DNA from: Verrucomicrobiia bacterium
GTDB taxonomy: Bacteria; Verrucomicrobiota; Verrucomicrobiia; Palsa-1439
Length of the DNA stretch: 64,000 nt
Reading direction: 5' to 3'
NCBI GenBank assembly: GCA_041495285.1
Contig: JBGQCJ010000001.1
Coordinates: 73,182 to 137,181 of the forward strand
Shown piece by piece: positions 19,396-53,548 of this stretch. Position 1 is the stretch's first letter, and each line of letters opens with the position of its first letter. A program made the translations under genes and the position numbers. A model generated the notes under the pieces. It saw nothing but the letters and a program-made list of their open reading frames with translations, made no database searches and was not told the origin of the DNA.

Positions 19396-19476
19396 GAATG
19401 AAGCGCAAGTCTTATTGCCGGGCACTTGCTTGTTCAAGTCGTTTGTTGTAGAACCGGCATTCGATTAGCAAGCTAC

Positions 19477-21045
19477 ATGATCGCCTTCAACGGACATAAT
19501 CTCACGATTGACGATGTCTGGCGGGTTGCCGGTCTGCAGTCTCCGTGTGCGCTCGCCGACAGCGCTCGCCCGCAAATCCGCAAGAGTCGCGCCTTTGTTG
19601 AAACCGTCGCCGCGCAACCGCGCGCCATTTACGGAATCAATACCGGCTTCGGCCCGTTGAGCGGGTTTCGCGTTCCCCCGGAAGAACTGGCGCAACACCA
19701 AGTCAATCTCCTCAGCCATCTCTGCGTCGGCCAGGGCGCGTTGTTTTCTCCGGCCGAAACGCGCGCGATCATGCTGGCCCGCGCCAACACGCTGGCACGC
19801 GGCTATTCCGGCATCCGGGAAGAGACGATCGAACTGCTCCTCGCGGCGCTCCGGCACGATGTGTTACCGGAGATTCCGAGTGAAGGTTCGGTCGGCGCGA
19901 GCGGCGATCTCGTGCCGTTGGCGCACATGGCCGGGTTGTTGGTCGGAAACGGCTTTGCGCGCGTGAACGGTCAACGCTTGCCCGCCATCGAGGCGTTGCG
20001 CTCTGTCGGGCTGAAGCCAATCGAATTGCAGAGCAAGGAAGGTCTGGCGCTCGTCAACGGCACATCGGTGATGACCGGGCTGGCGGCGTTGGCGGCCCAC
20101 GAAGCGTCTGCGCTGCTCGGTTGGATGGAATTGTTGACGGCGTGCTTGTTTCAAGTCTTGCAGGGCGAGCCGGAGGCGTTGTGCGAGCAGGCGCAAAAAG
20201 CGCGCGGGTTTCGCGGTCAATTTGTCTCCGCGGAACGCATCGCCAACCATTTGCGGACTCATCCGGATTTTGCCCGGCGCATTGACGAGCATCAATGGGG
20301 TTCGCTGGCCAAGCCGGTGGATCCCGGCGCCGAAATCCAAGACCCGTACTCGCTGCGGTGCGCGCCGCAGATTCTCGGGGCGTTCCAGGAAGCGCACTGG
20401 CACGTCGAGGCGGTCATCACGCGCGAACTGAATGCGAGCACCGACAATCCGTTGATCTTCGCCGAGACGGAAACGGTGATTCACTGCGGCAATTTCTACG
20501 GCCAACAAATCGCGATGGTCAGCGACTACGAACGGATGGGCTTGATCAAACTCGCGCTGTTAGCCGACCGGCAAATCGAGCGGCTGCTCAACTGGCGTTA
20601 CAGTCGCGGCCTGCCGCCGTTACTGGCCGGGGGCGAACCCGGTTTGAATTCCGGCTTTGCCGGCGCGCAACTGCTGGCCACGTCACTCGCCGCCGAAGCG
20701 CGCTTGCTCGGCACGCCGGCCTCCATCCAGACGATCCCCACCAACGCGAACAATCAGGATGTCGTCAGCATGGGTTGCATCGCGGCGAAGATGACGCGCA
20801 CGACGTTGCCATTGCTCTGGAAGCTGACGGCCATCGAAGCGCTCGCGTTGGCGCAGGCCGCCGACTTGCGTAACCGTCCGGACGTGATGGGCGGCGATTA
20901 CCGGAAACTTTACGACCTCGTACGCGACGTGTCGCCAACACTGACGACCGACCGGCCACTCGCCGAAGACATCGAACGCGTGACCGCGCTGCTTCAATCC
21001 GAGTCGGCCCAACAACAATGCTTACCGGCCCGCGATGCAGACTGA
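19477..21045 (+). CDS. Aromatic amino-acid ammonia-lyase (HAL/TAL/PAL family, MIO cofactor)
   Basis: 'GSVGASGDLVPLAHM' contains the Ala-Ser-Gly triad that forms the MIO prosthetic group. The whole length matches the HAL/TAL fold. It is adjacent to polyene genes, as for flexirubin TAL (FlxA). Confidence 0.85.
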   Translation: MIAFNGHNLTIDDVWRVAGLQSPCALADSARPQIRKSRAFVETVAAQPRAIYGINTGFGPLSGFRVPPEELAQHQVNLLSHLCVGQGALFSPAETRAIMLARANTLARGYSGIREETIELLLAALRHDVLPEIPSEGSVGASGDLVPLAHMAGLLVGNGFARVNGQRLPAIEALRSVGLKPIELQSKEGLALVNGTSVMTGLAALAAHEASALLGWMELLTACLFQVLQGEPEALCEQAQKARGFRGQFVSAERIANHLRTHPDFARRIDEHQWGSLAKPVDPGAEIQDPYSLRCAPQILGAFQEAHWHVEAVITRELNASTDNPLIFAETETVIHCGNFYGQQIAMVSDYERMGLIKLALLADRQIERLLNWRYSRGLPPLLAGGEPGLNSGFAGAQLLATSLAAEARLLGTPASIQTIPTNANNQDVVSMGCIAAKMTRTTLPLLWKLTAIEALALAQAADLRNRPDVMGGDYRKLYDLVRDVSPTLTTDRPLAEDIERVTALLQSESAQQQCLPARDAD

Positions 21046-22249
21046 CGTTGATGTTTTGATCATTGGAGCCGGCCCCGCCGGCTCAACCGCGGCGGCGCTT
21101 CTCCACCGCGAAGGCTTCCGGCTCCTCGTCGTCGAGAAGCAACACTTTCCCCGGTTTGTCATCGGTGAAAGTCTCCTACCCCACAGCATGGACTTGTTGA
21201 AGGAGGCCGGGCTGTTGGAAAATGTCGAGCAGCAACATTTCATGCACAAGGGCGGCGCGGTTTTTTTGCGCGGCCTGGAGACGTGCAACTTTGATTTCTC
21301 CAGCCAGTTCACCGCCGGCTGGACGTATACGTATCAAGTGCCTCGCGCGGACTTTGACAAGACGCTCGCCGACGCCGTGGCCGCCAATGGCGTGGAAATC
21401 TTGTACGGACAAAGCGTGACCGCCATCAACTTCGCGCCAACGCACGCCACCGTGACTGTCGAAGGGCGACCGGTGACGGCGCATTTCGTTCTCGATTGCA
21501 GTGGCTACGGGCGCGTTTTGCCGCGCTTGCTCGAATTAGAAAAGCCCTCACACTTTCCGGTGCGCGAAGCCTTGTTCACTCACGTGACCGGCGACCATCG
21601 CCTGGCGGGCCGCGAAGAAGGCAAGATTTGGATTTGCATGCATCCCGGCGGCGCATGGATTTGGATCATCCCCTTCTCGGACGGTCGCACAAGCGTCGGC
21701 GCCGTGGCCGAGCCGGAGTTTTTCAACCGGTATCCCAGCTTGCGAGACATCCTTGCATCCGACCCCAATGCCGCGCCGCGATTGGCGGAGACGAAGTTCT
21801 TGTTCGAGCCGCAACGGATTACCGGCTACGCGTGCTCGGTCAAACAACTCTACGGCCCGCAATTCGCGCTCGTCGGCAATGCGACGGAATTCCTCGATCC
21901 GATTTTTAGTTCAGGCGTCACCCTCGCGCTGGCGTCGGCGAACCGCGCGGCCCGGTTGCTGACCCGGCATCTGCGTGGCGAAACGGTGAATTGGCAGACG
22001 GAGTACGCCGACCATCTGATGCAAGGCATCAACACGTTTCGCGCCTACGTGACCGCGTGGTACGACGGCAACTTGCCGGAGATTTTCTTCGCGGCTCAAA
22101 AGAACCCGGTCATCATGAAACAAATCTGCTCGGTGCTGGCCGGTTACGTGTGGGACACATCCAATCCATACGTCTCCCAACCGGAGCGGGCGTTGCCGCT
22201 GCTGTCAAAAATCATCCGGGGCCAAGCCCGGCACGGCGCGACTCGATGA
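21035..22249 (+). CDS. Flavin-dependent halogenase (tryptophan-halogenase-like fold)
   Basis: 'VLIIGAGPAGSTAA' FAD motif plus the 'GGAWIWIIPF' WxWxIP signature of flavin-dependent halogenases. Overlaps the ammonia-lyase stop by 11 nt and the next gene start by 4 nt (ATGA). Confidence 0.75.
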   Translation: MQTDVDVLIIGAGPAGSTAAALLHREGFRLLVVEKQHFPRFVIGESLLPHSMDLLKEAGLLENVEQQHFMHKGGAVFLRGLETCNFDFSSQFTAGWTYTYQVPRADFDKTLADAVAANGVEILYGQSVTAINFAPTHATVTVEGRPVTAHFVLDCSGYGRVLPRLLELEKPSHFPVREALFTHVTGDHRLAGREEGKIWICMHPGGAWIWIIPFSDGRTSVGAVAEPEFFNRYPSLRDILASDPNAAPRLAETKFLFEPQRITGYACSVKQLYGPQFALVGNATEFLDPIFSSGVTLALASANRAARLLTRHLRGETVNWQTEYADHLMQGINTFRAYVTAWYDGNLPEIFFAAQKNPVIMKQICSVLAGYVWDTSNPYVSQPERALPLLSKIIRGQARHGATR

Positions 22250-23313
22250 AGTATTTTCGCAACGATTCGAAGACGGCTTACGAAGCGAAATCCGAGGCGC
22301 AAAGAATCGCCTTCGCTCCCATGGTGTTTCAGGCCTGCCGCTTCCTGCGCGACTCGGGAATACTGGAACTGGTCCAACAAAGCGGCGACGCAGGAATGAC
22401 CTTGCCGGAAGTGGTTGCCAAGGTCGGACTGCCGCGCTACGGAGTCAAAGTCCTCCTGGAATCGGGTCTGGGCAGCGGGTTGTTTTGCCTCAATGACGAT
22501 CGTTTTACTCTGACCAAGTTGGGCCACTTTATCCTTCGCGATCCCATGACGCGCGTGAATATGGATGTCGTGCATGACGTGTGTTATCGCGGTCTGTTCG
22601 ATCTTGATAAGGCCGTCAAAGAGGGCAAACCGGCAGGCCTAAAAACTTTGGGCGATTGGAAAACTTTTTACGAGGGGTTTTCCTCGTTACCGGCGCATGT
22701 GCGGGAAAGCTGGTTGGCCTTCGATCATTATTATTCTGACATTGCCTTTCCCGCCGCGTTGCCCTTGGTGTTTGCCGATCATCCCCAGCGGTTGCTGGAT
22801 GTCGGCGGCAATACCGGCAAATGGGCGCTTCAGTGCGCGAAGTTCGATCCCGACGTGCAGATCACGATTGCCGATTTGCCGCAACAACTGGAGTTTGCCC
22901 GGGAAGCAATCCGGAAGAATGACCTGGAGAACCGGGTCGATTTTCTTGCGGTCGATCTTCTGGATGAATCAAAACCGTTTCCCGGCGGTTATGATGCGAT
23001 CTGGATGAGCCAGTTCCTCGATTGTTTTTCGGAGAAGGAGATCGTCTCGATTCTGCAGCGCGCCGCCCGGGCCATGAAGGCCGGCAGCACGTTGTATATT
23101 CTCGAACTCTATTGGGACCGCCAGCCAAACGAAACTGCGGCCTTCTGTCTGCAACAGACTTCTCTTTATTTCGCCTGCATCGCCAATGGCAACAGCCAGA
23201 TGTACCACTCCGCCGACATGCTGCGGTGTCTGGATGAAAGTGGCCTCAAAGTGATTGAGGAACGCGACGAGGTGGGTCTGTATCACACCTTGTTCAAGTG
23301 CCGGAAAGCGTGA
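22246..23313 (+). CDS. Class I SAM-dependent O-methyltransferase (with N-terminal dimerisation domain)
   Basis: 'LLDVGGNTGKWA' motif I, with the motif II/III pattern of plant/Streptomyces-type O-MTs. The start is set at ATG 22246 (ATGA overlap with halogenase stop). The upstream 85 aa of the 440-aa track ORF is out-of-frame overlap. Confidence 0.75.
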   Translation: MKYFRNDSKTAYEAKSEAQRIAFAPMVFQACRFLRDSGILELVQQSGDAGMTLPEVVAKVGLPRYGVKVLLESGLGSGLFCLNDDRFTLTKLGHFILRDPMTRVNMDVVHDVCYRGLFDLDKAVKEGKPAGLKTLGDWKTFYEGFSSLPAHVRESWLAFDHYYSDIAFPAALPLVFADHPQRLLDVGGNTGKWALQCAKFDPDVQITIADLPQQLEFAREAIRKNDLENRVDFLAVDLLDESKPFPGGYDAIWMSQFLDCFSEKEIVSILQRAARAMKAGSTLYILELYWDRQPNETAAFCLQQTSLYFACIANGNSQMYHSADMLRCLDESGLKVIEERDEVGLYHTLFKCRKA

Positions 23314-23472
23314 GTCGCAAAGAAGCAAACTCTTTTTTTGGTCGGCTTTGCCTAAAAACTCTTGCGAAGCGATTCAGCAACTCAGAGAGGCGTTGCTGAA
23401 GTTTAATTAGATTCTATTGCCTACTCACAGCCTCAACCATAAGCTATCAAAAGACCTCAGACATCAAATGCC

Positions 23473-24435
23473 ATGGCAATAAAACGACCACTGAAAATAT
23501 CAGTGCCTGGACAAGGCTGGGCGCAGTTTCTTACTGCGAGGCAAGAAATGCTTGATGCTTATGACGCTGCCTACGAGAAGGCAAAGAAAGCTAAAGTCAA
23601 AGTGGCTCACGGAAAAGTCGCAGAAGCCAAGTTCAGAGAATGGCTCAGCAACTTTCTTCCAAGGCGCTTTGCGGTTACATCGGGCTATATAATTTCTCAG
23701 GGCCTGAGCAGCACCGAAAAGCTGCCTCACTACGACGTGATAATCTATGATCAAATGGAGTCTCCGATTCTGTGGATCGAGGGCAGTCCAGATACATCTG
23801 ATCGGGGGCGTTCGTTGGCGATTCCCGCAGAGTTTGTGAGGGGAGTGGTAGAAGTAAAATCTGCGTTTTCAAGTTCAACCGTAAAAAAAACTATTGAGCA
23901 TTTGGGTGATCTACAAGTTCTGTTCGATGGAAAAGATAAGCCCGACGATAAATACAAACTGTATCTACCTCCTCAATTCTTTTGTGCGGCGGTCTTTTTT
24001 GACTTGCGGTCGTCTGATTCCAGAAGCAAGGCGGCTCTAAGGCGCTTTGCTGAAGACGAGATGACCACCCGGAGAGAATTCATAGGCGGGCTGATTCTTC
24101 GTGGTGAAGGCCACAAATGGCCATCTACTGCCAGAATTCGCGTATTCGGCTTTGATAAGCCAGAGAAATTCTACAACAGAGACGGACATACCTTACTCAG
24201 TGAGGACGGGTCGGACACGTTCTCTGAACTTGTAAAAGGACGCGATAATCTTTCTTTCGCGGCCAAACTATCGTGGCACGAAATATATTTTCCAGAGTTT
24301 GCCTTTGAATTAGTCAAGCGCCTCCAAGGCACGTTCGATGGATCGATTCCTAGCTTCTACTGCTGGGGATCGGAACGTTGGGAAGAATTGAGAATCAAGG
24401 AGCTTAAACAATTTGATGAACAAGAAGATGAATAG
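23473..24435 (+). CDS. Hypothetical protein in low-GC island; candidate restriction endonuclease partner of the adjacent methyltransferase
   Basis: 320 aa, convergent with and 6 nt from the DNA MTase. AT-rich codon usage unlike its neighbours. Possible PD-(D/E)xK elements 'HYDVIIYD ... VVEVKSAF'. No confident family assignment. Confidence 0.35.
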   Translation: MAIKRPLKISVPGQGWAQFLTARQEMLDAYDAAYEKAKKAKVKVAHGKVAEAKFREWLSNFLPRRFAVTSGYIISQGLSSTEKLPHYDVIIYDQMESPILWIEGSPDTSDRGRSLAIPAEFVRGVVEVKSAFSSSTVKKTIEHLGDLQVLFDGKDKPDDKYKLYLPPQFFCAAVFFDLRSSDSRSKAALRRFAEDEMTTRREFIGGLILRGEGHKWPSTARIRVFGFDKPEKFYNRDGHTLLSEDGSDTFSELVKGRDNLSFAAKLSWHEIYFPEFAFELVKRLQGTFDGSIPSFYCWGSERWEELRIKELKQFDEQEDE

Positions 24436-24441
24436 CCAATC

Positions 24442-26064
24442 CTACAACATCTCCTCCTGCTTTCCCTTCTCCGCTTTCGGCGCGGCTTTCAAACCTGTGA
24501 CGGCTTGTTTTGGGAACTCAAAATTCTTTCCCGCGAACAACTGCTCTACTGTGCGGATTTGAATGCGCGGGAACTTGCCCCAACTCTCCGATTCAAACAC
24601 GCCGCCGTGCGCCGCTTCTTCCAGCATGTCCTTTGTCGGTTTGGCGTTGCAGATGTAGAAACCCATCGCCGCTTTTTCCCGCTGCACGACGCCGATTAAA
24701 TCCCGAATCTCACTCACGCCGATATTTGCGCCGCTTTTCACTTGAATGATGGCGCGCTGGACTGAATTTTTTGGGCCGTCGAGGAATGGAATGTAGCCAT
24801 CCATCCCTTGGTCGCTGCCTTTCTTATTTTCGCCGCCCATGGGAAAGCCGCCAATTTTTGAGACCGCCCAATATTGAAACTGATACTTGTCCTTGAGCTT
24901 CTTCGACTCCGCCAACGACGACGCGCTTGCCGCGTCCTTCGGCTCGCCAATCACTTCGTAATCTTTGTCCTCCTCCGCGCCGAGTCCTTTGAGGCGGAAC
25001 TTGATCAAGCCGATGGCCAGATGCGTAATATCAATGCCAATCCATTTTCGTTTCAATCCGTGCGCCACCGCCACCGCCGTGCCACATCCGCAGAATGGAT
25101 CGAGCACTACGTCACCTTCGTTGCTGCTAGCTTTGATAATGCGCTCCAATAGCGGTTCGGGCTTTTGCGTCGCGTAGCCCATGCGCTCCTCTGCCTGCGA
25201 GTTAATCGGGAGAATGTCAGTCCAAACATTGCCTGTCAGCGTGCCTTGCATCTCATCCAGATAGCGCTTTAACTGCGGACGTTTTGATTTACTGTCTGGA
25301 TACCAGATACGCCCTTCTGCTTCCAATTTCGCCATCGTCTCTTTTGAATAACGCCAACCTGCAGGAGGTGAAGCGTGTCCCTTCCATTCATACATCATGT
25401 TAGGGCGCGGGTTCGGACTGGTCATGTTATCCAATCTGTATACCCGTCCATCTGGATCGGCGTGACGATATTTGGATTTGAGATATTCGTCGGAATGCGG
25501 AGTGTAAATCGCATTCCACGCAAATCTGTCGGACTCGGTGTAAAAGAAAATTGTGTCGCTAACCTTGCTCCACGTTTTGCTGTCGCTGTGAACGTTTGTG
25601 CGCTGCCAAATAATTTCATTGCGAAAATTCTTCGCCCCAAAAATCGCATCCAAAATCATCTTCAAGTAATGCGACACGGTCGGGTCGCAATGGAGGTAGA
25701 GCGAGCCGGTTGGTTTAAGGACGCGGCGCAGTTCGATGAGGCGCGGCGTCATCATCACGAGGTAAGCGGTCACGTCGTTGTGTTTGCCGAGGACTTTCTG
25801 GAATTGCTCGATGAGGACAGCGATGTCGGAATACGCGGAAGTCTTTAGCGCGTTGAACGTCAACTCTGCATCTTCCGTCCAGTGCCACGAATCCTCGAAG
25901 GCGGTGATCTGCGAAGCGGCAAGCGCGCCCGTGCGTTCCTTGAAGATGACGTTGTAGTCGCGCTTGGAATTAAACGGCGGGTCGAGATAAACGAGGTCAA
26001 CGGATTCGTCGGCGATATGCTTTTGCAGGACTTCCAGATTGTCGCCGAAGAAGAGTTGGTTCAT
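24442..26064 (-). CDS. Beta-class N6-adenine/N4-cytosine DNA methyltransferase with C-terminal Mrr/PD-(D/E)xK-like domain
   Basis: Motif IV 'DLVYLDPPFNS' precedes motif I 'VLDPFCGCGTAVAVA' (beta-class order). A ~150-aa C-terminal extension carries 'GMDGYIPF...AIIQVKSG' (D...QVK). Confidence 0.8.
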   Translation of the reverse strand: MNQLFFGDNLEVLQKHIADESVDLVYLDPPFNSKRDYNVIFKERTGALAASQITAFEDSWHWTEDAELTFNALKTSAYSDIAVLIEQFQKVLGKHNDVTAYLVMMTPRLIELRRVLKPTGSLYLHCDPTVSHYLKMILDAIFGAKNFRNEIIWQRTNVHSDSKTWSKVSDTIFFYTESDRFAWNAIYTPHSDEYLKSKYRHADPDGRVYRLDNMTSPNPRPNMMYEWKGHASPPAGWRYSKETMAKLEAEGRIWYPDSKSKRPQLKRYLDEMQGTLTGNVWTDILPINSQAEERMGYATQKPEPLLERIIKASSNEGDVVLDPFCGCGTAVAVAHGLKRKWIGIDITHLAIGLIKFRLKGLGAEEDKDYEVIGEPKDAASASSLAESKKLKDKYQFQYWAVSKIGGFPMGGENKKGSDQGMDGYIPFLDGPKNSVQRAIIQVKSGANIGVSEIRDLIGVVQREKAAMGFYICNAKPTKDMLEEAAHGGVFESESWGKFPRIQIRTVEQLFAGKNFEFPKQAVTGLKAAPKAEKGKQEEML

Positions 26065-26146
26065 CGCGACAAGGTGTAGCGAAATGCCTCAAAAAACACA
26101 AGTGCAAGGGAACGGCAAGCGGAGGCACTTATTTGGCAAAGCTGGG

Positions 26147-27667
26147 TCAGAGAAAAAAACCGACGCCGGCAACGATAGTATTTCCTCTCGCCAATTGACT
26201 TTCCAGACCGTAACTCTCGGCGCGGATGAAGACCTTGCCCGCGGGCCGGCGCACTCCCAGCTCTCCGAGCCAGTCCGGCGTTTCGTTGCCAATCGAACCG
26301 ATGCCGCGCGTGTAGATAACGTAGCCTTGAATCGTCGCCACGTCCCAGTTCAACCCGAGTTGCGCGGCGAGATTGCCTCGCCCCCGAGAATGATGAAAGT
26401 CGCAACCGATCGTGACGCGCCAATCGAAATCGTTCAGCCACTCGGTTTTCGTCTGGTACATGCTGGGATCGCGGTAGGGGATGTCCCAGCCCAGCGTCTG
26501 CAGTCGCAGACGCATGAGATTGATGCTGTCGTGCTCCAACACCGTTGGAGGCGGAACGCGGGACGCGTCCGGCGCCAGCGCATGGGCGCTGCGGTGCAAA
26601 TATTCCGTGCCGAGCACCAACGGTTGGCCTTGCGACAACAGCGACGCCAGACCGATCTGCGTCTGGCCGCCGAAGCTGACCGAGTAGGAAACGTTGTCGA
26701 AATCTCCAGGCCGGTATTCCTGCCGGGATTCATACCAGAGCACCGCGGTGATCACATGGTCGGCGAGTTTCAGATCGTGCACCTCCGCATTCAATTCGGT
26801 CCGTTGAATGGTGCGGTCGCCGCCGTAACCAACATCGTACTGGCCCCAGACTAGCGGCAGCCAGCCGATCGGTCGGTGGTCGCGGGCGTCAAACACGGTA
26901 TCCTTGTCGAGCGACGCATTGACCTCGACGCCCAACAGCAAACCGGCATCCCGGGTCTCCAAGAACGGATTGCCATCGTTGGCGAACCAGCGGGCATGGA
27001 AGCGCACGCGGTTACCGTTGCCGGACATCACATCCAGCACCGGCCCCACCTTGTACAGCGCATGGAACCGCCCTCCGTCGTTGGATGACTCGACGTCCAC
27101 CGCCAGCTTGAGCGACGGTCGAAACGCCGTTTCCAGCATCTGGCCTTCGGGAAATTCATACACGCGCCATGCCAGATGCAGGTCTGCCCACCAATCGGAA
27201 TTGAGGCTCTCGCGTGATAGATACCCGCCGGCCACCACCGACCACTCCAGCCACGGCAGTTCCCGGCCCACTGGCGAACCGACGCCGGCACCAATCGTAT
27301 ACGCGTGAAGCGAACCGGCGCGGTCTTCAAAGGAACTGTTGCGGTAGCCGCCAATGGCGATCAGGCGCACGTGTTCACCCAACGTGACATCCGCCTCGAT
27401 CTCATGGCGCGAGTACAACAACTGCGTCTGTGACCCTTTCTTCAACACGGGTGTGAACTCGTACGAGCGATACAACAGGGAGAACGGTTCGACGCGATAG
27501 ATGGGCAATTGCACTCGAGTCTCAGCCACGTAGCTATGATCGGAACTGAACAGCCATCCGCCGATCATCGACTCAATTGTTGGCTGCAGCTGGTCCTCGG
27601 CGCACGCCGGCAGGACAAAGCACAAACACGCCAGACCCAGCAGGTTGTTTGTCAATCGCCGTTTCAT
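26147..27667 (-). CDS. Putative outer-membrane beta-barrel protein
   Basis: Signal peptide 'LLGLACLCFVLPACA'. Alternating amphipathic beta-strand pattern throughout. C-terminal '...VGFFL' aromatic terminus typical of OMPs. Confidence 0.4.
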   Translation of the reverse strand: MKRRLTNNLLGLACLCFVLPACAEDQLQPTIESMIGGWLFSSDHSYVAETRVQLPIYRVEPFSLLYRSYEFTPVLKKGSQTQLLYSRHEIEADVTLGEHVRLIAIGGYRNSSFEDRAGSLHAYTIGAGVGSPVGRELPWLEWSVVAGGYLSRESLNSDWWADLHLAWRVYEFPEGQMLETAFRPSLKLAVDVESSNDGGRFHALYKVGPVLDVMSGNGNRVRFHARWFANDGNPFLETRDAGLLLGVEVNASLDKDTVFDARDHRPIGWLPLVWGQYDVGYGGDRTIQRTELNAEVHDLKLADHVITAVLWYESRQEYRPGDFDNVSYSVSFGGQTQIGLASLLSQGQPLVLGTEYLHRSAHALAPDASRVPPPTVLEHDSINLMRLRLQTLGWDIPYRDPSMYQTKTEWLNDFDWRVTIGCDFHHSRGRGNLAAQLGLNWDVATIQGYVIYTRGIGSIGNETPDWLGELGVRRPAGKVFIRAESYGLESQLARGNTIVAGVGFFL

Positions 27668-35946: not shown

Positions 35947-36375
35947 CTAAGGCAGACTCCAATCAAAGAGGCGTTTCACTTGCCCGATGTTGGCAATCGC
36001 GTGATCCTTGTCATCTGCCGTCGTAGTCGTCCAAGGATAAGCGTTCGTGTAGCCGGTTTCGATGAGGCGGTCATAGAAAACCTTGGCTAGATTCTTCAAC
36101 TGACCGACATTGACCGCCCGGTAATTGTTGGTGGGAGAGAAACTATTGATCATCGCTGTCACGTTTGAACCAGCGCCACCCAGCAGCTTCGTTTCCATTT
36201 CCAAGTACGCATGATACGAGACATTCTTCACTTGGCCTTGGTTGACAGCAGCAAAGTCATTCGTGGTAACGCCGGACTTAAGAACGTCATTTGTCCACCA
36301 AGCGGGCCCCGCCGCGTGTACGACGGACGATGTCAACATGCAACCAACGAGGGCGAATTTGAGTCTTCGTCTCAT
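35947..36375 (-). CDS. Hypothetical secreted protein
   Basis: 142 aa with a signal peptide. No motif recognised. Confidence 0.35.
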   Translation of the reverse strand: MRRRLKFALVGCMLTSSVVHAAGPAWWTNDVLKSGVTTNDFAAVNQGQVKNVSYHAYLEMETKLLGGAGSNVTAMINSFSPTNNYRAVNVGQLKNLAKVFYDRLIETGYTNAYPWTTTTADDKDHAIANIGQVKRLFDWSLP

Positions 36376-36377
36376 GG

Positions 36378-37382
36378 CTATGGCCCGTTGGTATAGCTTC
36401 CCATGGATAGATCGCCTTGCGGCGGTGTGTTCAAGACCACCGGCACATAAAAGTAGGCGGCGTCCTTGGTTAGCGCGACATAGTTAGTGCCCAAGTGGCC
36501 GAACACATGAGAGTAATCGGCGACGTTGTTGGTCGCGCCGTAGCCGTACACGAACCGGTATCGAGAATTGTTAGCCACCGTGCTTGAACCACCAAAGATA
36601 CCGCAATTCGGTGCGTTCACTGCGTTTTGACCGGCTTTAGCTCCGACCGCCACGGTATTGGTGCAGTTTACAGCGGAGGCATGCGCACTGCTGCCGATGG
36701 CCACCGAAGACGGACACGATGACGCGGAGGATTCGGCACTGGCTCCCACTGCCACAGCAGAACCACAGGAGGTTGCGCCGGATTGAGCCGACTGGCCTAC
36801 GGCAACGGACGTCGTGCAATTTGAAGCGCCGGTTTGGCTATTCTGCCCGATGGCTACCGACCACAGGCCGCCAGCAGCTCCTTTCTGCGCCTGATAGCCA
36901 ATAGCAACGGAGATTGCACAGGCGGACGCCTGAGCCTGCGCCGCGTATCCAACCGCAACGGAAGAGCTGCAGTTCGTTGCCTGCCACTGAGCGAGCCCTC
37001 CAAGCGCTTCGGCACTAAAGCAGCCGGCAGCGTCCAGTTGCGACCACGGCCCGGCAGCAAGAGATGCACTGCAATTGTTGGCCTGGTATTGTGAGTACAT
37101 GCCGAGGGCGGTGGACTGCCAGCAATTCGAAGCCAAAGAATGCGCGTACAATCCCGCCGCAAGGCTGGAGTCGGATGCTGATGCGCCCACCGCAGCTTGA
37201 TCGCCGTAGCCGGTAGCGTTGACAAACCCGCTGACGACCTCATTGCTGGATACACCCAAGTTGCCCTGCACATTCAGGTCGCCTGCCCATGCACAACACC
37301 CTGCCAGCCCCATAGCGAGTGCGACTACCGCTGGGAATCCTAAACTGTCTCTTCTTGTTTTCATAGCTGCTCTCCTTTTCAT
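36378..37382 (-). CDS. Secreted Cys-punctuated repeat protein with YadA-head-like 'SVA(I/V)G' repeats
   Basis: Signal peptide followed by at least 10 tandem ~17-20-aa units, each with 'N/S-C-[ST]..SVA[VI]G..AQ/AS'. Confidence 0.5.
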   Translation of the reverse strand: MKRRAAMKTRRDSLGFPAVVALAMGLAGCCAWAGDLNVQGNLGVSSNEVVSGFVNATGYGDQAAVGASASDSSLAAGLYAHSLASNCWQSTALGMYSQYQANNCSASLAAGPWSQLDAAGCFSAEALGGLAQWQATNCSSSVAVGYAAQAQASACAISVAIGYQAQKGAAGGLWSVAIGQNSQTGASNCTTSVAVGQSAQSGATSCGSAVAVGASAESSASSCPSSVAIGSSAHASAVNCTNTVAVGAKAGQNAVNAPNCGIFGGSSTVANNSRYRFVYGYGATNNVADYSHVFGHLGTNYVALTKDAAYFYVPVVLNTPPQGDLSMGSYTNGP

Positions 37383-38629
37383 GGAATTGTGACTGTACCT
37401 ACAGGTTTGAGGGTGACCGTCTTGGCTTGTGGATCAAAGGTCGTCTCACTGTATTGTCCCGACGCGATTTCCACGCTGTCGCCACTGAATGAGGCGGAGA
37501 TTGCCGCTTGAATATTGTGTTTCGGGCCGTGGTTGCCGGTGACTATCGGAGTCAAACCATCGTAACCGTTATCGCCGGTGCTGCTGTTGGCATACAGCGT
37601 CACATTCTTGCTCAGCGGATCGGTCGGATCGGTGCCGCGTCTATATTCATCGAGGTTGCTGATTCCGTCACCATCGAGGTCAGAATCGGCGTCATCGGGG
37701 TTTCCGGGGTCAAGCCCGTACTGATTCTCCCACCAGTCGGGCATGAAGTCCTCATCAGTATCAAGGCTACCCGAAGGGCCTGAACAGAAAAGCGTCTGAG
37801 CCAATGGCCGCTGCTCGACGCCCCAGCGACCGACGAAACCGCGCACGGTGTAACAGTCCGCCGGTAAGTCGTAAATCTGGTACACGCCATCAGAGCCGGT
37901 CTTCATGCCGACGAACACGCCGGTATCCTTGCCGAGGAATCGAACCCGCGCGTCGGCGAGAAGATTACCCAGCGCATCGCGCAGCACGCCTGAAGTCGTG
38001 AGACTGTTCTTTGGTTTGTGCCATGAAATCGAAACGTTGTTCGTCACACCGGCAGTCAGCGCCGGCAACGGCACCACCCGCTCGTCGAAGTAAAAACCGT
38101 CTTGATAGATCAATCGCATCGTCTGCTGATACTTCGGCAATTCGGGAATGAGGAACGTCCCATTCGTCGCCACGTCCACTTCCGTCGCGTTGACCTCGAC
38201 TCTGAACTTGGTCAGATCGGTTGTGCCGTTGGTAATCGTGATCGTCCCCGACAACGCTGCCGCCGGCCCGGCGCGAAAGATCACTTCGTTGGTCGGAGTC
38301 AGTGTGCTCAAGCGCACAATTCCTTTCATTGGCACGACGCCATTCACAGGCAATTCCAGTATTTGCAACTCGCCGGAAAGCTCTCCTCCGAGGTCACCAA
38401 AATCGAATTCTCCATTTGCATCTGAATTCGTGCTGACCAAGGTAGGCAAGGCGTCAACGGGCAAGGACAGTGTCGCGTATAGAAAGTCGATGGTAACACC
38501 GGCCACCGTTTGGGTGCTGGTGCCATCAAAGACTTTGCCATGGACTCGGAAGCTGCTGGCATCGACGCTCACATCCAACAGGAATAGCGAAATGCCAACG
38601 ATAAACGCATGCGAGAGTTTCTTGTTCAT
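37379..38629 (-). CDS. Secreted protein with carboxypeptidase-regulatory-like beta-sandwich domains, thrombospondin type-3 Ca-binding repeats and a truncated beta-helix start
   Basis: 'DTDEDFMPDWWENQYGLDPGNPDDADSDLDGDGISNLDEY' are TSP3 repeats. Two 'R..G.V.D...G.....TNSDANGEF' CarbopepD_reg-like units. Confidence 0.45.
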   Translation of the reverse strand: MNKKLSHAFIVGISLFLLDVSVDASSFRVHGKVFDGTSTQTVAGVTIDFLYATLSLPVDALPTLVSTNSDANGEFDFGDLGGELSGELQILELPVNGVVPMKGIVRLSTLTPTNEVIFRAGPAAALSGTITITNGTTDLTKFRVEVNATEVDVATNGTFLIPELPKYQQTMRLIYQDGFYFDERVVPLPALTAGVTNNVSISWHKPKNSLTTSGVLRDALGNLLADARVRFLGKDTGVFVGMKTGSDGVYQIYDLPADCYTVRGFVGRWGVEQRPLAQTLFCSGPSGSLDTDEDFMPDWWENQYGLDPGNPDDADSDLDGDGISNLDEYRRGTDPTDPLSKNVTLYANSSTGDNGYDGLTPIVTGNHGPKHNIQAAISASFSGDSVEIASGQYSETTFDPQAKTVTLKPVGTVTIP

Positions 38630-39066
38630 AGTAATGACTCCGCTTCGTTGTATTTCCGCTCGTTCTGAATACCGATGACCTTATCGCCGACGTGAACCGA
38701 TCCACTCTTTCGTTCAAAAATTGCCCTTCTCTTGTTGTCTCCATCGTAGGCCCCCATTGTTCTAACCCTTCCTACGATTCTACTTTCGCGGATTACTAGC
38801 AGCACTACGCCATCGTGTTGCGGCGGGGGCATCGTCCCGAAATCGATTCCAACGGTGTCTTGATCCACCCACTTAACAACTCCGGTTCCGTAGTAGGATT
38901 CACGGGAACGGTCCGGTCCCGCTTTGCCATACGTGCGCATCGCAAACTCGTGCACCGAACAGCCCATCTCCAAGACACAAGCCAGAACCGTAACAAGGCG
39001 AAGCCGCCATGCATATCGGCTGATACTGTCGCCGATGGCCTCAAGGTTGAATGAACAAACTTTCAT
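38626..39066 (-). CDS. Hypothetical protein
   Basis: 146-aa ORF in tight 4-nt overlaps with both neighbours. No motifs. Confidence 0.3.
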   Translation of the reverse strand: MKVCSFNLEAIGDSISRYAWRLRLVTVLACVLEMGCSVHEFAMRTYGKAGPDRSRESYYGTGVVKWVDQDTVGIDFGTMPPPQHDGVVLLVIRESRIVGRVRTMGAYDGDNKRRAIFERKSGSVHVGDKVIGIQNERKYNEAESLL

Positions 39067-41770
39067 CGCTCCCTAAGAGTTGTTCGAACAGTTCTCCCGT
39101 CCGTGGATTCGGCCCGGGAAGTTCAAAATGGACGACGCCATTGATAACGCGATTGGTATTGGACGCGTTCAAATTGCGGGCACTCGCGGAGGGCACAATT
39201 GCATCGCTGTTCGAGGCGCGAAGATCACTCGGCGCCGGGGCGGTCAAAGTAAAGCCCGCAATGATTCTAAACATCCCCGTCTCAAAACTGTTCCATAGAG
39301 AACCCCCTGCTGCGATTCCTTCGATGGGAGCATACGCCACCGGTATCGGCGCAAGCGCATTAAGCGCCACGGATTTCGATGGCGCCGGGCTTCCGCTCAA
39401 CGGGTGCGGCCCATACGCTGCAAGATCGATCAGCGACATGCCTTGTGGGCCGGCGTCTCCCGGGTCTGTCAGCGCAATCGCGTGAAATCCCAATATCTGT
39501 TCCACTCCACTCCAGACGCGGCGCTGAATATCGCCCGGCTCGCTTCGACGATTGATGCCGTTGTTGACCATTCGAATCGCCGCGCGACTCCAATCCGTTC
39601 CAGTGTGTGGGGTACCCAGGGTGATGAACCGCCGAATGTCCCCAATACCGAAATTATCCGGTCTTATGAACTCGTGTTCTGCCGCACGCGGCTGAGATAC
39701 GATCAGGCTTGTCTTGAAGAGCGGCGCAGGATCAGCACCCACGCTCCGATCTGCCCTATTCGGCAAGTCGGTACTGCGAGTCATATACCATCGCGTCACC
39801 AGACCGCCCATGCTGTGGGCAACCACGTCGACACGGGTTGCGGCAATGCCTTGGTTCTGCCGCATATCGACGAGTGCGTTATGAATCGTTTGAGGTGCGT
39901 TCTGAAATATCACATCCAAACCATAGGCACTTTGGTCATGATAGTCGGCCTTATACTTATCCACTTGAATGTTTGCTGCTTGGAGAGCGTCAACGAAATC
40001 GTCCCATCTCTCTTGCCCTGAAATCCACCCATGCACCAGCACGAGCGGCGGTTTGCGGAGAGTGAGGGTTTTAGTGGCGACCACATCGTTGCTCGGATTG
40101 TGCAACTCGATTTGGATGTTGTGCTCCTTTGAGCCGCTGCCGAATGCCCAACTCGGCGGAGAACGGTAGAAGATGGCGGTATCGTTTGCGCCGAGTGCGA
40201 GGTTGGTGTTGCCGGGATAGGCCAGCGTAGCCGGCAGCTGTGGCAACGAGTTATCACTCCCGTGATGGAGGCTGCCGAGTTGCGCCGCGTCATTGGTGGA
40301 CGAGACCGAATCCTTAACACCCACCTTCCAGCCGGCGTACGAGCAAGGATTTGATGAAAGTTGGACGACGATCAACGACGCACCATCGGTGAGCGCTCCG
40401 ACGCGGTTAAACGAACTCTGCACTGTGTTGGTGATCGGAGTTTGCAGCGAGGGAGTGCTGCCGATCAGTTGCGGTTGGAATCCTTGTGCATCCACCAGCT
40501 TTACCGAATAGTCGTTGTACCAAACCTTCCAAGTGATGCTGACATTTTGCCAACCGATATTCCCGCAACAGTTTGTGTCATCGGTTGCAGTAATGTCCAC
40601 TTGGAGCCGCTTTCCGACAATGGTTACCTTTTCCGGTGGAATTACGGTGCCCGGCTGATGTCTATTGGCGGGCCGGCGACACGATCCGCCGATCGTTACG
40701 GGAAGTCCGGCAATTGTGCCTTCGTCATCAAAAAAGGAATCGTTAATGACCACCTGAAAATGGTCCGCAGTCGGCTGAAAAGGAAATTCATCGCTCTGCA
40801 AAATATCGGTGATTGTCTTTCCGCACCCTGGTGACCCTTTATTACCAATCCAGTCCGATCGGGTGTATGTCTTGGTCTGGCTGACGATACAGCCCGATCC
40901 TGTTTGCATCAAGCTTGTGGCTTGAGTCACTGCATTGCTTGAGCCACCAGAAGGATAACTATTCGGATCGTTCGGGTTGGTGCCGGCATCGACTTCCATG
41001 AAATCCGGAACGCCGTCCCCATCGGAATCAGCATAGTATAAGGCCAGCAGTTCGTTCGTGCTCAGCGCCGCGCCGTAGATTCGCACGTCATCCAACTGTC
41101 CGGCCAGTAACCCAATCCGTAGCGGGTCGGTGACTGTATCCACGGTGCCGCTGGCTGCCGCGCTGCCGGCGAGCGTCGCGTCTAAGTACACGTTGATAGC
41201 GGTGCCGTCATAGACTCCGGCCACTTGGTGCCAATTCGTGTCCGTCAAGCCGCTCGACCCCGTGACTGCCGTGTAGTTGCCGCCAAGCATCAATTCCAGT
41301 TTGGGAAGGCCGTTGGTCAACGACAACAGATAACTGCCGGCTACCTGATTCGTGCTCCATTTGGCCACAACCTCGCTGGTCAGATTCGTCGCCGCCTTCA
41401 CCCACGCCGCGACGGTTAACGCGTTGGTCGGAATCAGCCCGGCATCGTGCGGCACCTGCACTTCATTCTGAATTCCATCGAAGCTCAACGCGTTGGAACT
41501 CACGCCACTCGTCCATGTCGGAAGCGGATTGCCTTCGAGTGTCCCGTGCCAGGCGTTGCTCGACACGTCTACCACGTTCGTGCCCGCGCCTTCATCCAAC
41601 GGCCAGCGACCGACAAGGTTGTCCTCGGCATATCCCGGCCATTGCAGAATGACGATCAGAAGTGCAGTGAGAAAAAATTTCTGCTGGATGAAACGACTGC
41701 GAGAGAACCGAGTGGCGATTGACCGTCGTCTTTGCTTTCCCCTTGCGCCCCTTTTGTCTCTCTCGCACAT
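39041..41770 (-). CDS. Large secreted LamG(ConA-like)-TSP3-alpha/beta-hydrolase (lipase/esterase) protein
   Basis: Signal peptide, then a LamG-like region ('SNALSFDGIQNEVQVPHD...LTVAAWVKA'). 'DSDGDGVPDFMEVDAGTNPNDPNS' is TSP3. The lipase core is 'PLVLVHGW...VDVVAHSMGGLVTRWYM' (GXSXG nucleophile elbow). Confidence 0.6.
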   Translation of the reverse strand: MCERDKRGARGKQRRRSIATRFSRSRFIQQKFFLTALLIVILQWPGYAEDNLVGRWPLDEGAGTNVVDVSSNAWHGTLEGNPLPTWTSGVSSNALSFDGIQNEVQVPHDAGLIPTNALTVAAWVKAATNLTSEVVAKWSTNQVAGSYLLSLTNGLPKLELMLGGNYTAVTGSSGLTDTNWHQVAGVYDGTAINVYLDATLAGSAAASGTVDTVTDPLRIGLLAGQLDDVRIYGAALSTNELLALYYADSDGDGVPDFMEVDAGTNPNDPNSYPSGGSSNAVTQATSLMQTGSGCIVSQTKTYTRSDWIGNKGSPGCGKTITDILQSDEFPFQPTADHFQVVINDSFFDDEGTIAGLPVTIGGSCRRPANRHQPGTVIPPEKVTIVGKRLQVDITATDDTNCCGNIGWQNVSITWKVWYNDYSVKLVDAQGFQPQLIGSTPSLQTPITNTVQSSFNRVGALTDGASLIVVQLSSNPCSYAGWKVGVKDSVSSTNDAAQLGSLHHGSDNSLPQLPATLAYPGNTNLALGANDTAIFYRSPPSWAFGSGSKEHNIQIELHNPSNDVVATKTLTLRKPPLVLVHGWISGQERWDDFVDALQAANIQVDKYKADYHDQSAYGLDVIFQNAPQTIHNALVDMRQNQGIAATRVDVVAHSMGGLVTRWYMTRSTDLPNRADRSVGADPAPLFKTSLIVSQPRAAEHEFIRPDNFGIGDIRRFITLGTPHTGTDWSRAAIRMVNNGINRRSEPGDIQRRVWSGVEQILGFHAIALTDPGDAGPQGMSLIDLAAYGPHPLSGSPAPSKSVALNALAPIPVAYAPIEGIAAGGSLWNSFETGMFRIIAGFTLTAPAPSDLRASNSDAIVPSASARNLNASNTNRVINGVVHFELPGPNPRTGELFEQLLGSDESLFIQP

Positions 41771-41955
41771 GGTCGCAGCCTTGGCCACCGCGACACTCAA
41801 ACACCTGTTAGCCTTATACACCCCCCCCCTGCACAAACTGTCAACAACGAAATGAGTTTCTTTTTCCAAGAAGCAAATGCTCCCTTCAGCGCTCCCGGCA
41901 ACAATTTCCTTCCGCGTCGCATCCAAGCAATAGTAAGGTTGCTCCGTCGCGAGTC

Positions 41956-49692: not shown

Positions 49693-51501
49693 ATGTCTTA
49701 CCTAGAACGCTCACTCAAAGACGGCCATGCCAAACTTACCGGTGAAGGCAAGCAACAGAAGATTCTCTACGTTGCCGTCAATCACACCGAACGCTACTCA
49801 GACCCTGAGGAGCAGGTTCGCGCGGAGTTTTGGGCCGAGTTGATTTACCGGTATGGGTACGAGCCGGCGCGAATTGGCGTCGAAGTCGTCGTACCGGACC
49901 GGACGCCTTCCGATCGCGCTGATCTGGTTGTGTTCCGCGACGATGAGCGCAAGAAGCCTTACGCAGTTGTGGAGTGTAAGCAAGACGGCATCACTGACGC
50001 CGAGTTCAATCAGGCAGTCGAGCAGGCTTGCGGAAACGGCACGTGGGCAAAGTTCCGCGCCACATACGTCGGCGTTGTTGCCGGCATGACACGTCGCTTC
50101 TTGGATTTCTCCGAGAAGTACGGCGTTCTGGAACGTGAAGCAAACATCGTTGCCGATCTGCCGGGCAAATACGGACGGCCAGAGGAATACCGGTTTTACA
50201 AGGGCGACCAGAACAACGACATCCAACTCGTCAGCAAAGAAGCCCTCATCGCCGCCATTAAGAAATGCCATCAAACGCTTTGGGGTGGTGGCAAACTCTC
50301 GCCGCCTTCGGCCTTCGGTGAACTCTGCAAAATCATCTTCGTCAAAATCAGCGACGAGCAGGCCAAGCGGAAGAAGGGCGAACCTTACGAATTCCAAATC
50401 AAAACCTACGAGCAAAGCCGCCGGCTGGCGGAACGCATCAAATCACTGTACGACGTCCAGAAGCTGAAAGACCCGGATGTCTTCACCGACACCATCAAGA
50501 TTGACGACGCGAGTCTCCGCACCGTCGTTTCACACTTGGAGAGCATCAACCTCAGTAAAACCGACCTCGACACCAAGGGCGTCGCCTTCGAGCAATTCAT
50601 GGATGGATTCTTCAAGGGCGACTTCGGACAATTTTTCACCCCACGCGAAATGATCGCCTTTGCCGTGGACATGCTACCGCCCGGCAATGAAGACCTTGTT
50701 CTCGATCCCGCCTGCGGTTCCGGTGGTTTCCTGCTCCACGTACTCGACGCCATCCGCCGGGAAGCGACCGAGTACCACCCGGAAGGTTCGGAAGAGCACT
50801 ACAAACATTGGCACGACTTCGCCAAAGAACGGTTGTTTGGCATCGAGATCAACGACGAAATTGCCCGCGTCGCCAAGATGAACATGATTATCCACGACGA
50901 CGGCCACAGCAACGTCATCGGCGCAGACGCGCTCGACCGCGTTGAGCGGCTCAACTCCGTGAACCGTGGATTTTCCAAGGGGCGCTTTACTCGCATCTAC
51001 ACCAATCCGCCTTTCGGCTCGCAGGTAAATCTCGCTGAGCGGCCTTATCTTGCCGATTACGTTCTCGCCTCTGCCGTGGACGCAAAGGGCAATTCCAAGC
51101 AGCGCAAGAACCAGAAAACCGAAATCCTGTTCATCGAACGTATCTGGCATTTCCTCAAACCCGGCACCGGTCACGCCGCCGTTGTGTTGCCGGATGGTAT
51201 TCTCACCAACTCATCGCTGCAACCCGTCCGCGATTTCCTGTTGGAACACTTCCAAGTCTTGGCCGTGGTCAGCGTGCCGCAGACGGCGTTTAGTCATTAC
51301 GGTGCTGGCGTCAAATCCAGCTTAGTCTTTCTTCGCAAACGTGCAGACGACGAGAAACCCAAGGATTCCGAAGCCATTTTTATGGCCGTGCCGGAACTGA
51401 TCGGCTACGACGCGACTGGCCGCAAGTGCGACAATCAACTCCCCGAAGTCGCGGAACAATATCGGCAGTTCCAGAAGGACGCTCAACCTTTTTTCGTCTA
51501 A
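49693..51501 (+). CDS. hsdM: Type I restriction-modification N6-adenine methyltransferase subunit with N-terminal HSDR_N-like PD-(D/E)xK domain
   Basis: 'LDPACGSGGFLL' motif I and 'IYTNPPFGSQ' motif IV. The N-terminal 'RADLVVFRDDERKKPYAVVECKQ' is a PD-(D/E)xK-type core. Confidence 0.85.
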   Translation: MSYLERSLKDGHAKLTGEGKQQKILYVAVNHTERYSDPEEQVRAEFWAELIYRYGYEPARIGVEVVVPDRTPSDRADLVVFRDDERKKPYAVVECKQDGITDAEFNQAVEQACGNGTWAKFRATYVGVVAGMTRRFLDFSEKYGVLEREANIVADLPGKYGRPEEYRFYKGDQNNDIQLVSKEALIAAIKKCHQTLWGGGKLSPPSAFGELCKIIFVKISDEQAKRKKGEPYEFQIKTYEQSRRLAERIKSLYDVQKLKDPDVFTDTIKIDDASLRTVVSHLESINLSKTDLDTKGVAFEQFMDGFFKGDFGQFFTPREMIAFAVDMLPPGNEDLVLDPACGSGGFLLHVLDAIRREATEYHPEGSEEHYKHWHDFAKERLFGIEINDEIARVAKMNMIIHDDGHSNVIGADALDRVERLNSVNRGFSKGRFTRIYTNPPFGSQVNLAERPYLADYVLASAVDAKGNSKQRKNQKTEILFIERIWHFLKPGTGHAAVVLPDGILTNSSLQPVRDFLLEHFQVLAVVSVPQTAFSHYGAGVKSSLVFLRKRADDEKPKDSEAIFMAVPELIGYDATGRKCDNQLPEVAEQYRQFQKDAQPFFV

Positions 51502-52883: not shown

Positions 52884-53548
52884 ACCAGCTTCCCTATCTG
52901 TTGGATGAGATTTGCGCGGGCGTGGAAGTCTATTACACCGGGCGCACGGGTGGGCAGTATTTCAAAACCGCATTTATCCTCTGCGACGATTATACCGAGC
53001 TAACCGCCAAACTGTTTCTGCTGACTGACAACACACATTGGTCGGATGCGAAAGGCGGCGGCTTCAAGAATTATTCCGATATTCAAACCGACGTTGAAGC
53101 AGTTTTCACCGCTAAGCGCGCTGCTGCCTTGCCAACGGTGACTGCGCTCCATTCCAATTTGCTGTCGCGGCGCGCAAGTCGGAACGGCTTCTTTCATAAA
53201 ACGCATTTCCTCAACCTGAGCGTCACGCCACGAGGCTGCGTTGAGTCTTTTTGTGATCTGTTCAGCTATGGAGAGTTGCTATTCGGCAATGACTGGACTC
53301 AGGCCGTTGCCGCGACGCGGAACTTGGAAACGCTGGTCATCTTGCTCAAATTGGAAAAGAAGAGTTTCAGCGAGCCATTGGTGTGGCCGAAAGTTGAGGA
53401 AATCATCAAGACATGGCCGCGCAACAAAAAGAACTCAGCGCAGACCGGCGTTCACCTGACCATGCACCCCGAAGACATGCACCTGCGCTTGACCGTGACG
53501 TATGGCCACAAAGCCCTACGCGATAAACTGGCAGCGCTGTTGCTTTGA
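52880..53548 (+). CDS. Hypothetical 222-aa protein translationally coupled (ATGA) to hsdS; no recognisable domain
   Basis: Start overlaps the hsdS stop and it has the same lower-GC composition as hsdMS. It occupies the slot where hsdR would be expected. Confidence 0.4.
   Translation: MNQLPYLLDEICAGVEVYYTGRTGGQYFKTAFILCDDYTELTAKLFLLTDNTHWSDAKGGGFKNYSDIQTDVEAVFTAKRAAALPTVTALHSNLLSRRASRNGFFHKTHFLNLSVTPRGCVESFCDLFSYGELLFGNDWTQAVAATRNLETLVILLKLEKKSFSEPLVWPKVEEIIKTWPRNKKNSAQTGVHLTMHPEDMHLRLTVTYGHKALRDKLAALLL

Follow-up and report, generated by a model that had tools for sequence, protein, structure and literature searches.

We describe here a 64-kb stretch of DNA from a Verrucomicrobiia bacterium (contig JBGQCJ010000001.1 of assembly GCA_041495285.1, positions 73,182 to 137,181 of the forward strand; hereafter the window), in which a short, low-GC insert carries two convergent open reading frames (ORFs): ORF A, a predicted stand-alone NucC-like nuclease, and ORF B, a beta-class DNA methyltransferase with a C-terminal Mrr-type domain. 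The original prediction, made from the sequence alone, had proposed that the two might form a cognate restriction-modification (R-M) pair, with ORF A as the possible endonuclease. We instead favor, with a probability of roughly 65%, two independent solitary genes that share one small acquired islet and are not a cognate R-M pair. We arrive at independence because the two genes do not co-occur at the loci surveyed, their closest homologs are unpaired, plasmid copies of ORF B are solitary, and the two genes differ in GC content at third codon positions (GC3).

At 23314-26146, a recently acquired segment separates two convergent genes: GC reaches its lowest level in the window here, and three relatives have the same site without the segment. 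Its GC content of 0.500 is the lowest for any 2.8-kb stretch of the window (mean 0.592, standard deviation 0.032); in the composition profile, positions ~23250-26000 lie at 0.47-0.54 and both flanks at 0.58-0.64, with the caveat for the GC border that GC is already declining within the upstream O-methyltransferase gene (GC 0.545). In the three relatives (L171, L172, and L173), the flanking genes are convergent and adjacent, the insert is absent, and the flanking protein is 72-82% identical. We compared the spacers of these empty sites to refine the insertion borders, and no common sequence was recognizable among them. The sharp GC drop between 23314 and ~26100 and the horizontal acquisition suggested on that basis were both borne out. 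The identical two-gene locus was seen solely in one further assembly, from this lineage too (L001 and L002 represent a single locus).

To judge whether the pairing is conserved, we surveyed the neighborhoods of each gene separately. The ORF A survey took one genome per species and covered 79 loci in many phyla, and a homolog of the ORF B fusion lay within 8 kb of the ORF A-type gene at none of them. Among the 141 nearest neighbors of ORF A homologs, no Pfam family was found more than three times, and there was no DNA methyltransferase among the 25 families listed. The recurrent families were integrases, transposases, a resolvase, DUF4238, and SRAP; AbiH, NTase-conflict, and YhcG each occurred once. 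The 130 second neighbors contained one N6_N4 methyltransferase, together with SIR2_2 and integrases (three each, the most for any family), such that DNA methyltransferases made up 1 of the 271 first and second neighbors. The only ORF A-type locus with a nearby beta-class DNA methyltransferase was in a metagenome-assembled genome of Candidatus Thermodesulfobacterium syntrophicum (L048; 5528-6481 and 7974-8879): this methyltransferase sits two genes away from the ORF A homolog and is not an Mrr fusion.

The surroundings of ORF A homologs show a defense-island pattern. Near these homologs (L005, L007, and the neighbors of L008-L086) we observed DUF4238, DUF4365, HEPN_RiboL-PSP, SIR2_2 (three times), and AbiH, as well as integrases and ISL3 and rve transposases. 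Defense genes frequently cluster in such islands without interacting.

The ORF B survey gave the same answer from the other side. At none of the 80 metagenome loci with full-length ORF B homologs was there a nearby gene of DUF6602, the Pfam family of ORF A. The 129 neighbors of these homologs were heterogeneous and mostly unrelated housekeeping genes (PIN, four; N6_N4_Mtase, two; integrase, two), and no nuclease family recurred among them. Plasmid copies of the ORF B fusion were likewise solitary, lying amid maintenance and toxin-antitoxin genes, and the closest homologs of ORF A and of ORF B (52-63% identity), on contigs that provided context, were unpaired. Finally, the GC3 of ORF A is 0.464, that of ORF B is 0.652, and the flanking genes range from 0.66 to 0.76. 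Such a difference suggests separate histories for the two inserted genes, even in the case of a joint arrival.

ORF A had been described as having no recognizable family, and this did not hold. It matched Pfam DUF6602 (PF20247; E = 2.6e-19, 69.5 bits with a gathering cut-off of 27) and, in PADLOC, the PD_DExK model (2.9e-17) and two NucC effector models (2.8e-13). Searches of PDB sequences returned NucC chains only; the match was weak when ORF A alone was the query and reached 2e-8 with the family profile. Alignment of the ORF A profile with six genuine NucC proteins in hhalign paired residues 18-147 with NucC residues 8-124 (98% probability, E = 2.7e-13). The AlphaFold (AF2) model of ORF A had a predicted local distance difference test (pLDDT) score of 85 and a predicted template-modeling score (pTM) of 0.85, and a Foldseek search of the PDB with this model gave 14 matches, all NucC, at E of about 1e-9 to 2.5e-8, the next match being at E = 0.26. 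These alignments mostly spanned about 285 columns, with template-modeling scores on the target of 0.56-0.69, mostly 0.65-0.69. Genuine NucC genes are labeled 'DUF6602 domain-containing protein' at NCBI, and ORF A and NucC can therefore be placed in one Pfam family. This is a defense-type nuclease family and not a non-defense one. The suggestion that ORF A might be a new effector was thus nearer the mark in its effector part; the newness falls away, as the family is already catalogued as DUF6602.

The catalytic residues are those expected of such a nuclease. Across 46 ORF A homologs (45-58% identical), H86, D88, E120, E127, and K129 are invariant, and D88, E120, and E127-V-K129 align with D73, E97, and E104-A-K106 of NucC, with an active-site spacing of 38 residues in ORF A versus 30 in NucC. 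In NucC, D73, E104, and K106 constitute the active site, and the D73N substitution abolished activity (bioRxiv 10.1101/694703). The D/EVK element noted earlier in the convergent 320-amino acid ORF is this E127-V-K129, now placed within a PD-(D/E)xK nuclease family. Taken together, alignment and model show for ORF A a predicted NucC-like fold in full, with an intact putative Mg-dependent PD-(D/E)xK site at D88/E127/K129.

We place the start of ORF A at 23473, where the N-terminal 25 residues are kept in homologs and the JGI call also yields 320 amino acids. The NCBI record (GCA_041488115.1) begins 25 codons late (295 amino acids, omitting 23473-23547), and the omitted residues (LK..P.QGW.QFLTAR) are conserved in the family and open the long N-terminal helix. 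By exhaustive search of 1.84 billion representatives, the ORF A family is modest in size: 286 clusters were found at E <= 1e-30, 500 at E <= 1e-10, and 1,731 at E <= 1e-3. ORF A had no match in the phage collection, the plasmid collection, or PHROGs.

NucC is an effector of type III anti-phage signaling systems based on cyclic oligonucleotides (CBASS) and of type III CRISPR systems, leading us to ask whether ORF A could be wired in the same manner. The three-fold pocket of NucC holds cyclic tri-AMP through R53, Y81, and T226, and a gate loop is latched by H136 and Y141 (bioRxiv 10.1101/694703). The cyclic tri-AMP-binding residues are not preserved as a set in ORF A: the phosphate-contacting R53 is kept as R65 (in LPRRF; family motif LP(K/R)R(Y/F)), but the adenine-stacking Tyr81, invariant in NucC, is replaced by Glu96 and is variable across the ORF A family. 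The Tyr81-equivalent position is followed by an insertion of 8 residues, with W101, D107, and G112 invariant, and at the place of the gate loop ORF A has a coil of about 18 residues (152-169) with a conserved D.P.ERYKLYLP motif of its own.

Nor did we find the genes that would make the signal. A tblastn search of ORF A-type loci and the window for CBASS partners (cyclase, HORMA, TRIP13, Cap2, and Cap3) detected none, the sole match being a weak one to the TRIP13 AAA ATPase query (L019, E = 5e-4); in the same search, E. coli NucC as the query detected 65 ORF A-type loci. No Cas10 or CBASS family recurred among the surveyed ORF A neighbors. As controls, genuine NucC genes directly adjoin CBASS cyclases and HORMA/TRIP13 or Cap2/Cap3. 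Given the absence of linkage and the loss of Tyr81, we rejected the idea that ORF A is a canonical NucC of CBASS or CRISPR. Because there is no linked cyclase, Tyr81 is replaced, and the 8-residue insertion is conserved, the trigger of ORF A is probably something other than canonical cyclic tri-AMP produced by a neighboring gene. Solitary NucC-type genes also occur nearer to canonical NucC, as suggested by a 39%-identical NucC homolog on a Euzebya pacifica plasmid (L181:2920-3681), which lies among small hypothetical genes with no annotated cyclase.

ORF B was recognized readily as a methyltransferase. It matched Pfam N6_N4_Mtase (PF01555) over residues 22-348 (E = 6.9e-44, 150.9 bits with a cut-off of 26.7), and its motif IV precedes its motif I, which is the beta-class order and agrees with the class assigned earlier from DPPF lying ahead of FCGCGT. 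Among proteins of solved structure, those closest in sequence are EcoP15I Mod, another type III Mod, MboIIA, CcrM, and RsrI. A search of 5.8 billion proteins gave at least 8,000 hits; the best 120 of these are 534-614 amino acids long, align over 95-100% of the query, and are 55-64% identical to it, and 119 of these best 120 carry the C-terminal domain on their Pfam record (Mrr_cat or NA-iREase1). ORF B as a Type III Mod was ruled out, with no Res in the island and none recurring among the 129 homolog neighbors.

The extra C-terminal domain, previously read as PD-(D/E)xK-like from a D...QVK signature, proved to be an Mrr-type nuclease fold and not a TaqI-like target-recognition domain (TRD). 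Residues 412-486 matched Mrr_cat (PF04471; E = 2.7e-8, 34.4 bits with a cut-off of 21) and also NA-iREase1 (2.1e-7). Across 36 ORF B homologs, K415, G416, D418, G420, D422, G423, V442, K443, G445, and E463 are invariant in this domain, and position 441 holds either Q (19 homologs) or S (17). When the C-terminal 156 residues were modeled (pLDDT 85), Foldseek matched the model to Rpb5-N, MspJI, AspBHI, HamA, the Avs4 nuclease, and AF1548, with weak E values (1.5e-3 to 6e-2) and probabilities of 0.84-1.00. A profile of the domain run against PDB sequences returned nothing meaningful, and the domain scanned alone matched no Shedu or other PADLOC effector model and no phage family. A Shedu identity was likewise ruled out, as there was no DUF4263 match in Pfam at E <= 1 and no PADLOC Shedu match. 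From the profile matches and the model, the C-terminal domain is assigned to the Mrr/MspJI branch of the PD-(D/E)xK fold.

Mean pairwise identity within the ORF B family is 73% in the TRD-like region (166-290), 66% in the N-terminal catalytic part, and 54% in the Mrr-type domain. ORF B would thus appear to methylate one fixed target sequence, because its target-recognition region is the best conserved outside the cofactor (motif X/I) region.

These features suggest how each protein may act on its own. ORF A, by analogy with NucC, would be held inactive until an allosteric or oligomerization trigger releases non-specific cleavage of double-stranded DNA, and it may serve in anti-phage defense or abortive infection as a one-gene effector of a kind similar to 'Damona'. 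This proposal fits the one literature report on such a cassette, in which Damona, a DUF6602-containing single gene of the chromosomal integron of Vibrio cholerae, is reported among anti-phage systems (bioRxiv 10.1101/2024.07.02.601686). ORF B would be a fixed-motif N6-adenine or N4-cytosine methyltransferase whose Mrr-type domain would either cut DNA, making the protein a single-chain R-M system, or merely bind it. A bolder, joint proposal is tentative and in our view doubtful: ORF A could represent a cyclase-independent branch of the NucC fold, a self-contained, allosterically gated endonuclease whose remodeled pocket (Tyr81 lost, the 8-residue W..D....G insertion, and the D.P.ERYKLYLP motif) responds not to cyclic tri-AMP but to a different ligand, such as a phage-derived signal or one from an unlinked system; separately, the methyltransferase-Mrr fusion could be an unrecognized class of single-chain R-M in which a beta-class methyltransferase is joined to a C-terminal MspJI-type cutter.

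Several points weigh against the independence of the two genes and the roles proposed for them. ORF A and ORF B are convergent and tightly packed, their stops lying 6 bp apart; none of the three empty sites has either gene; and a 14-nucleotide inverted repeat brackets both of them. They may have arrived as one unit, as a functional module also would. The surveys relied on a crude ORF caller and listed only the 25 most frequent Pfam families, such that rare partners could be hidden, and the cyclase tblastn used few queries and was insensitive. Finally, the C-terminal half of ORF A aligns with NucC structurally only, and the profile-profile alignment left T226, H136, and Y141 unmapped.

We weighed three other explanations. 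It is unlikely that neither gene is defensive, with ORF B being an orphan epigenetic or housekeeping methyltransferase that carries a dead DNA-binding module and ORF A a repair or recombination nuclease. The ORF B family does have features of this kind: it is large, highly conserved including the TRD-like region, and often situated among housekeeping genes, its C-terminus matches the Pfam family 'NACHT-associated inactive REase 1' (REase, restriction endonuclease) and varies at position 441, and its top fold matches include Rpb5-N, a non-catalytic REase fold. However, D418, D422, K443, and E463 are invariant, as expected of an active site; ORF A homologs are sporadic and occur in variable, mobile, defense-rich contexts; the structural relatives of ORF A are immune nucleases only; and both genes are recent foreign DNA in this genome.

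A lineage-specific cooperative system of a new kind, in which one protein senses or marks foreign DNA and the other executes, or in which one has an antitoxin role, seems to us decidedly unlikely. The combination is found in one genome lineage only, in many other genomes each gene evidently works unaided, the GC3 difference argues for separate histories, and clustering of defense genes that do not interact is common; these points outweigh the close spacing of the stops, the possible joint mobilization implied by the bracketing repeat, and the fact that both proteins are nuclease-bearing and of defense type. The cognate Type II R-M pair, with ORF A as the endonuclease and ORF B methylation protecting the host, is very improbable: although the genes are packed tail to tail and missing together from the empty sites, and although the catalytic core of ORF A is of the restriction-enzyme type and the structure of NucC is akin to those of NgoMIV and SgrAI, the genes co-occur neither at the 79 and 80 loci nor among their closest homologs, ORF A homologs are essentially never beside a DNA methyltransferase, the codon composition of the two genes is unlike, NucC is second-messenger-controlled with cleavage reported to be non-specific and apparently methylation-insensitive, and the TRD-like region of ORF B is more conserved than its N-terminal catalytic part, unlike in specificity-diversifying R-M enzymes (for NucC, bioRxiv 10.1101/694703). 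Together, these comparisons leave two independent solitary genes as the reading we prefer.

Table 1. Features of the insert and its flanks, by position in the window, and the empty sites of relatives.
Feature	Position	Strand	Remarks
Inserted low-GC segment	23314..26146	.	2,833 bp, bounded by the stop codons of a convergent pair of host genes
ORF A, 320-aa (amino acid) stand-alone NucC-like PD-(D/E)xK nuclease (predicted)	23473..24435	+	Pfam DUF6602
ORF A catalytic core	23734..23859	+	D88 (23734-23736), E120, E127-V-K129 (23851-23859)
ORF B, 540-aa beta-class N6/N4 DNA methyltransferase with C-terminal Mrr-type domain	24442..26064	-	
ORF B motif IV DPPF, residues 28-31	25972..25983	-	read in translation; invariant in the family
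ORF B motif I FCGCGT, residues 324-329	25078..25095	-	F324, G326, C327, G328, and T329 invariant
ORF B Mrr/MspJI-type PD-(D/E)xK-fold domain (assigned by profile and model), residues ~406-500	24565..24849	-	D418, D422, Q441-V-K443, E463
Inverted repeat, left arm	23345..23358	+	14 nucleotides, imperfect, near the island edge; GCTTTGCCTAAAAA
Inverted repeat, right arm	26129..26142	-	GCTTTGCCAAATAA, read on the - strand
Left flank, 355-aa O-methyltransferase belonging to the biosynthetic cluster of the host	22246..23313	+	Pfam Methyltransf_2/Dimerisation2; outside the insert
Right flank, 506-aa protein without a Pfam family	26147..27667	-	outside the insert
Empty site L172			flanking protein 82% identical; spacer about 40 bp
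Empty site L173			flanking protein 73% identical; spacer 23 bp
Empty site L171			flanking protein 72% identical; spacer 320 bp

ORF A and ORF B occupy the whole insert, leaving no space for an integrase or transposase. The arms of the inverted repeat are complementary at 12 of 14 positions, which was equaled in 9 of 1,000 shuffles, and no further copy of the motif (GCTTTGCCWAAWAA) was found in the window or among the 181 loci; the repeat could be the termini of a cassette or the two arms of a terminator that has been split. When the island was scanned for promoters and terminators, counts were no higher than in shuffled sequence. An integration site at a tRNA or non-coding RNA was ruled out, as the window has no tRNA and 22-28 kb gave no match in Rfam.

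The host context is probably a verrucomicrobial biosynthetic cluster. The named homologs of the right-flank protein are from Verrucomicrobiota without exception. The insert lies within an apparent cluster at ~5000-35000 that contains an aromatic amino-acid lyase (19426-21045), two Trp-halogenase-like flavin adenine dinucleotide (FAD) enzymes, an O-methyltransferase, and a phytoene-desaturase-like oxidoreductase. A bulk Pfam scan, in which positions within the window were unmapped, also returned two ketoacyl synthases, acyltransferases, and a polyprenyl synthase. The product of the cluster may be a halogenated aryl-polyene-type pigment. Further along, a run of genes with lower GC3 (0.56-0.65) at 35947-41926 (- strand) encodes large Laminin_G_3 and CarboxypepD_reg proteins and several family-less ORFs, and may be another acquired segment.

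The window also has a second, unrelated R-M-like locus at 49693-53548 (+ strand; GC3 0.59-0.68). Here, a 602-amino acid protein with an HSDR_N_2 nuclease and an N6_Mtase/Eco57I methyltransferase is followed by a 485-amino acid Methylase_S specificity subunit and a 222-amino acid family-less ORF, an arrangement that by its domains is similar to Type IIG/BcgI-like or to Type I-derived systems. PADLOC models for Type I MTase, specificity, mad2, and REase_MTase_IIG match window proteins, although the bulk output does not name the individual proteins.

Both ORF A and ORF B are further members of families that are already catalogued and functionally uncharacterized. A methyltransferase beside a PD-(D/E)xK protein in a low-GC islet mimics an R-M pair by eye, but the comparative context says otherwise, which is a caution for automated defense-system calls. 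The locus raises two questions: how a NucC-fold nuclease is controlled without a linked cyclase or the adenine-stacking residue, and what role an Mrr/MspJI-type domain plays in a very large conserved family of solitary beta-class methyltransferases.

Among known systems, NucC (PDB 6P7O, 6P7P, 6UXF, and 7ZGV) is the nearest to ORF A. The two share the DUF6602 family and the equivalent active-site triad, and the ORF A model shares the whole predicted fold, including the non-core embellishments that form the trimer and pocket in NucC. They differ in length (320 amino acids in ORF A, about 241 in NucC), in the nucleotide pocket as described above, and in a C-terminal half of ORF A that has no detectable sequence similarity. 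Damona is likened to ORF A by the DUF6602 domain, the PADLOC Cas PD_DExK and CBASS endonuclease matches, its solitary gene, and homologs in mobile contexts, the likeness being known from the shared domain and solitary habit only. Damona homologs are reported from Acinetobacter prophages (bioRxiv 10.1101/2024.07.02.601686), whereas ORF A is unmatched in the phage and plasmid collections.

ORF B has the IV-I motif order and N6_N4_Mtase fold in common with type III Mod subunits and beta-class Type II methyltransferases (EcoP15I Mod, MboIIA, CcrM, and RsrI), but it has the extra Mrr-type domain and no Res or endonuclease partner, either at this locus or at the 80 ORF B-type loci. The Type IV enzymes Mrr, MspJI, and AspBHI resemble its C-terminal domain in the GxDxGxDG ... 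QxK signature, the Mrr_cat score, and the fold match; in ORF B, however, the domain is fused to a methyltransferase and not to a modified-base reader, and about half of the homologs have S in place of Q441. In classical Type IIG enzymes the nuclease is N-terminal and the methyltransferase is of the gamma class, whereas ORF B is a beta-class methyltransferase with its nuclease-fold domain at the C-terminus. What ORF B does share with Type IIG/IIC enzymes and with N6_N4_MTase-Shedu fusions is a methyltransferase and a PD-(D/E)xK fold in one chain, encoded by a solitary gene; for the Shedu fusions, this architecture has been suggested to constitute single-chain R-M (bioRxiv 10.1101/2023.08.10.552793).

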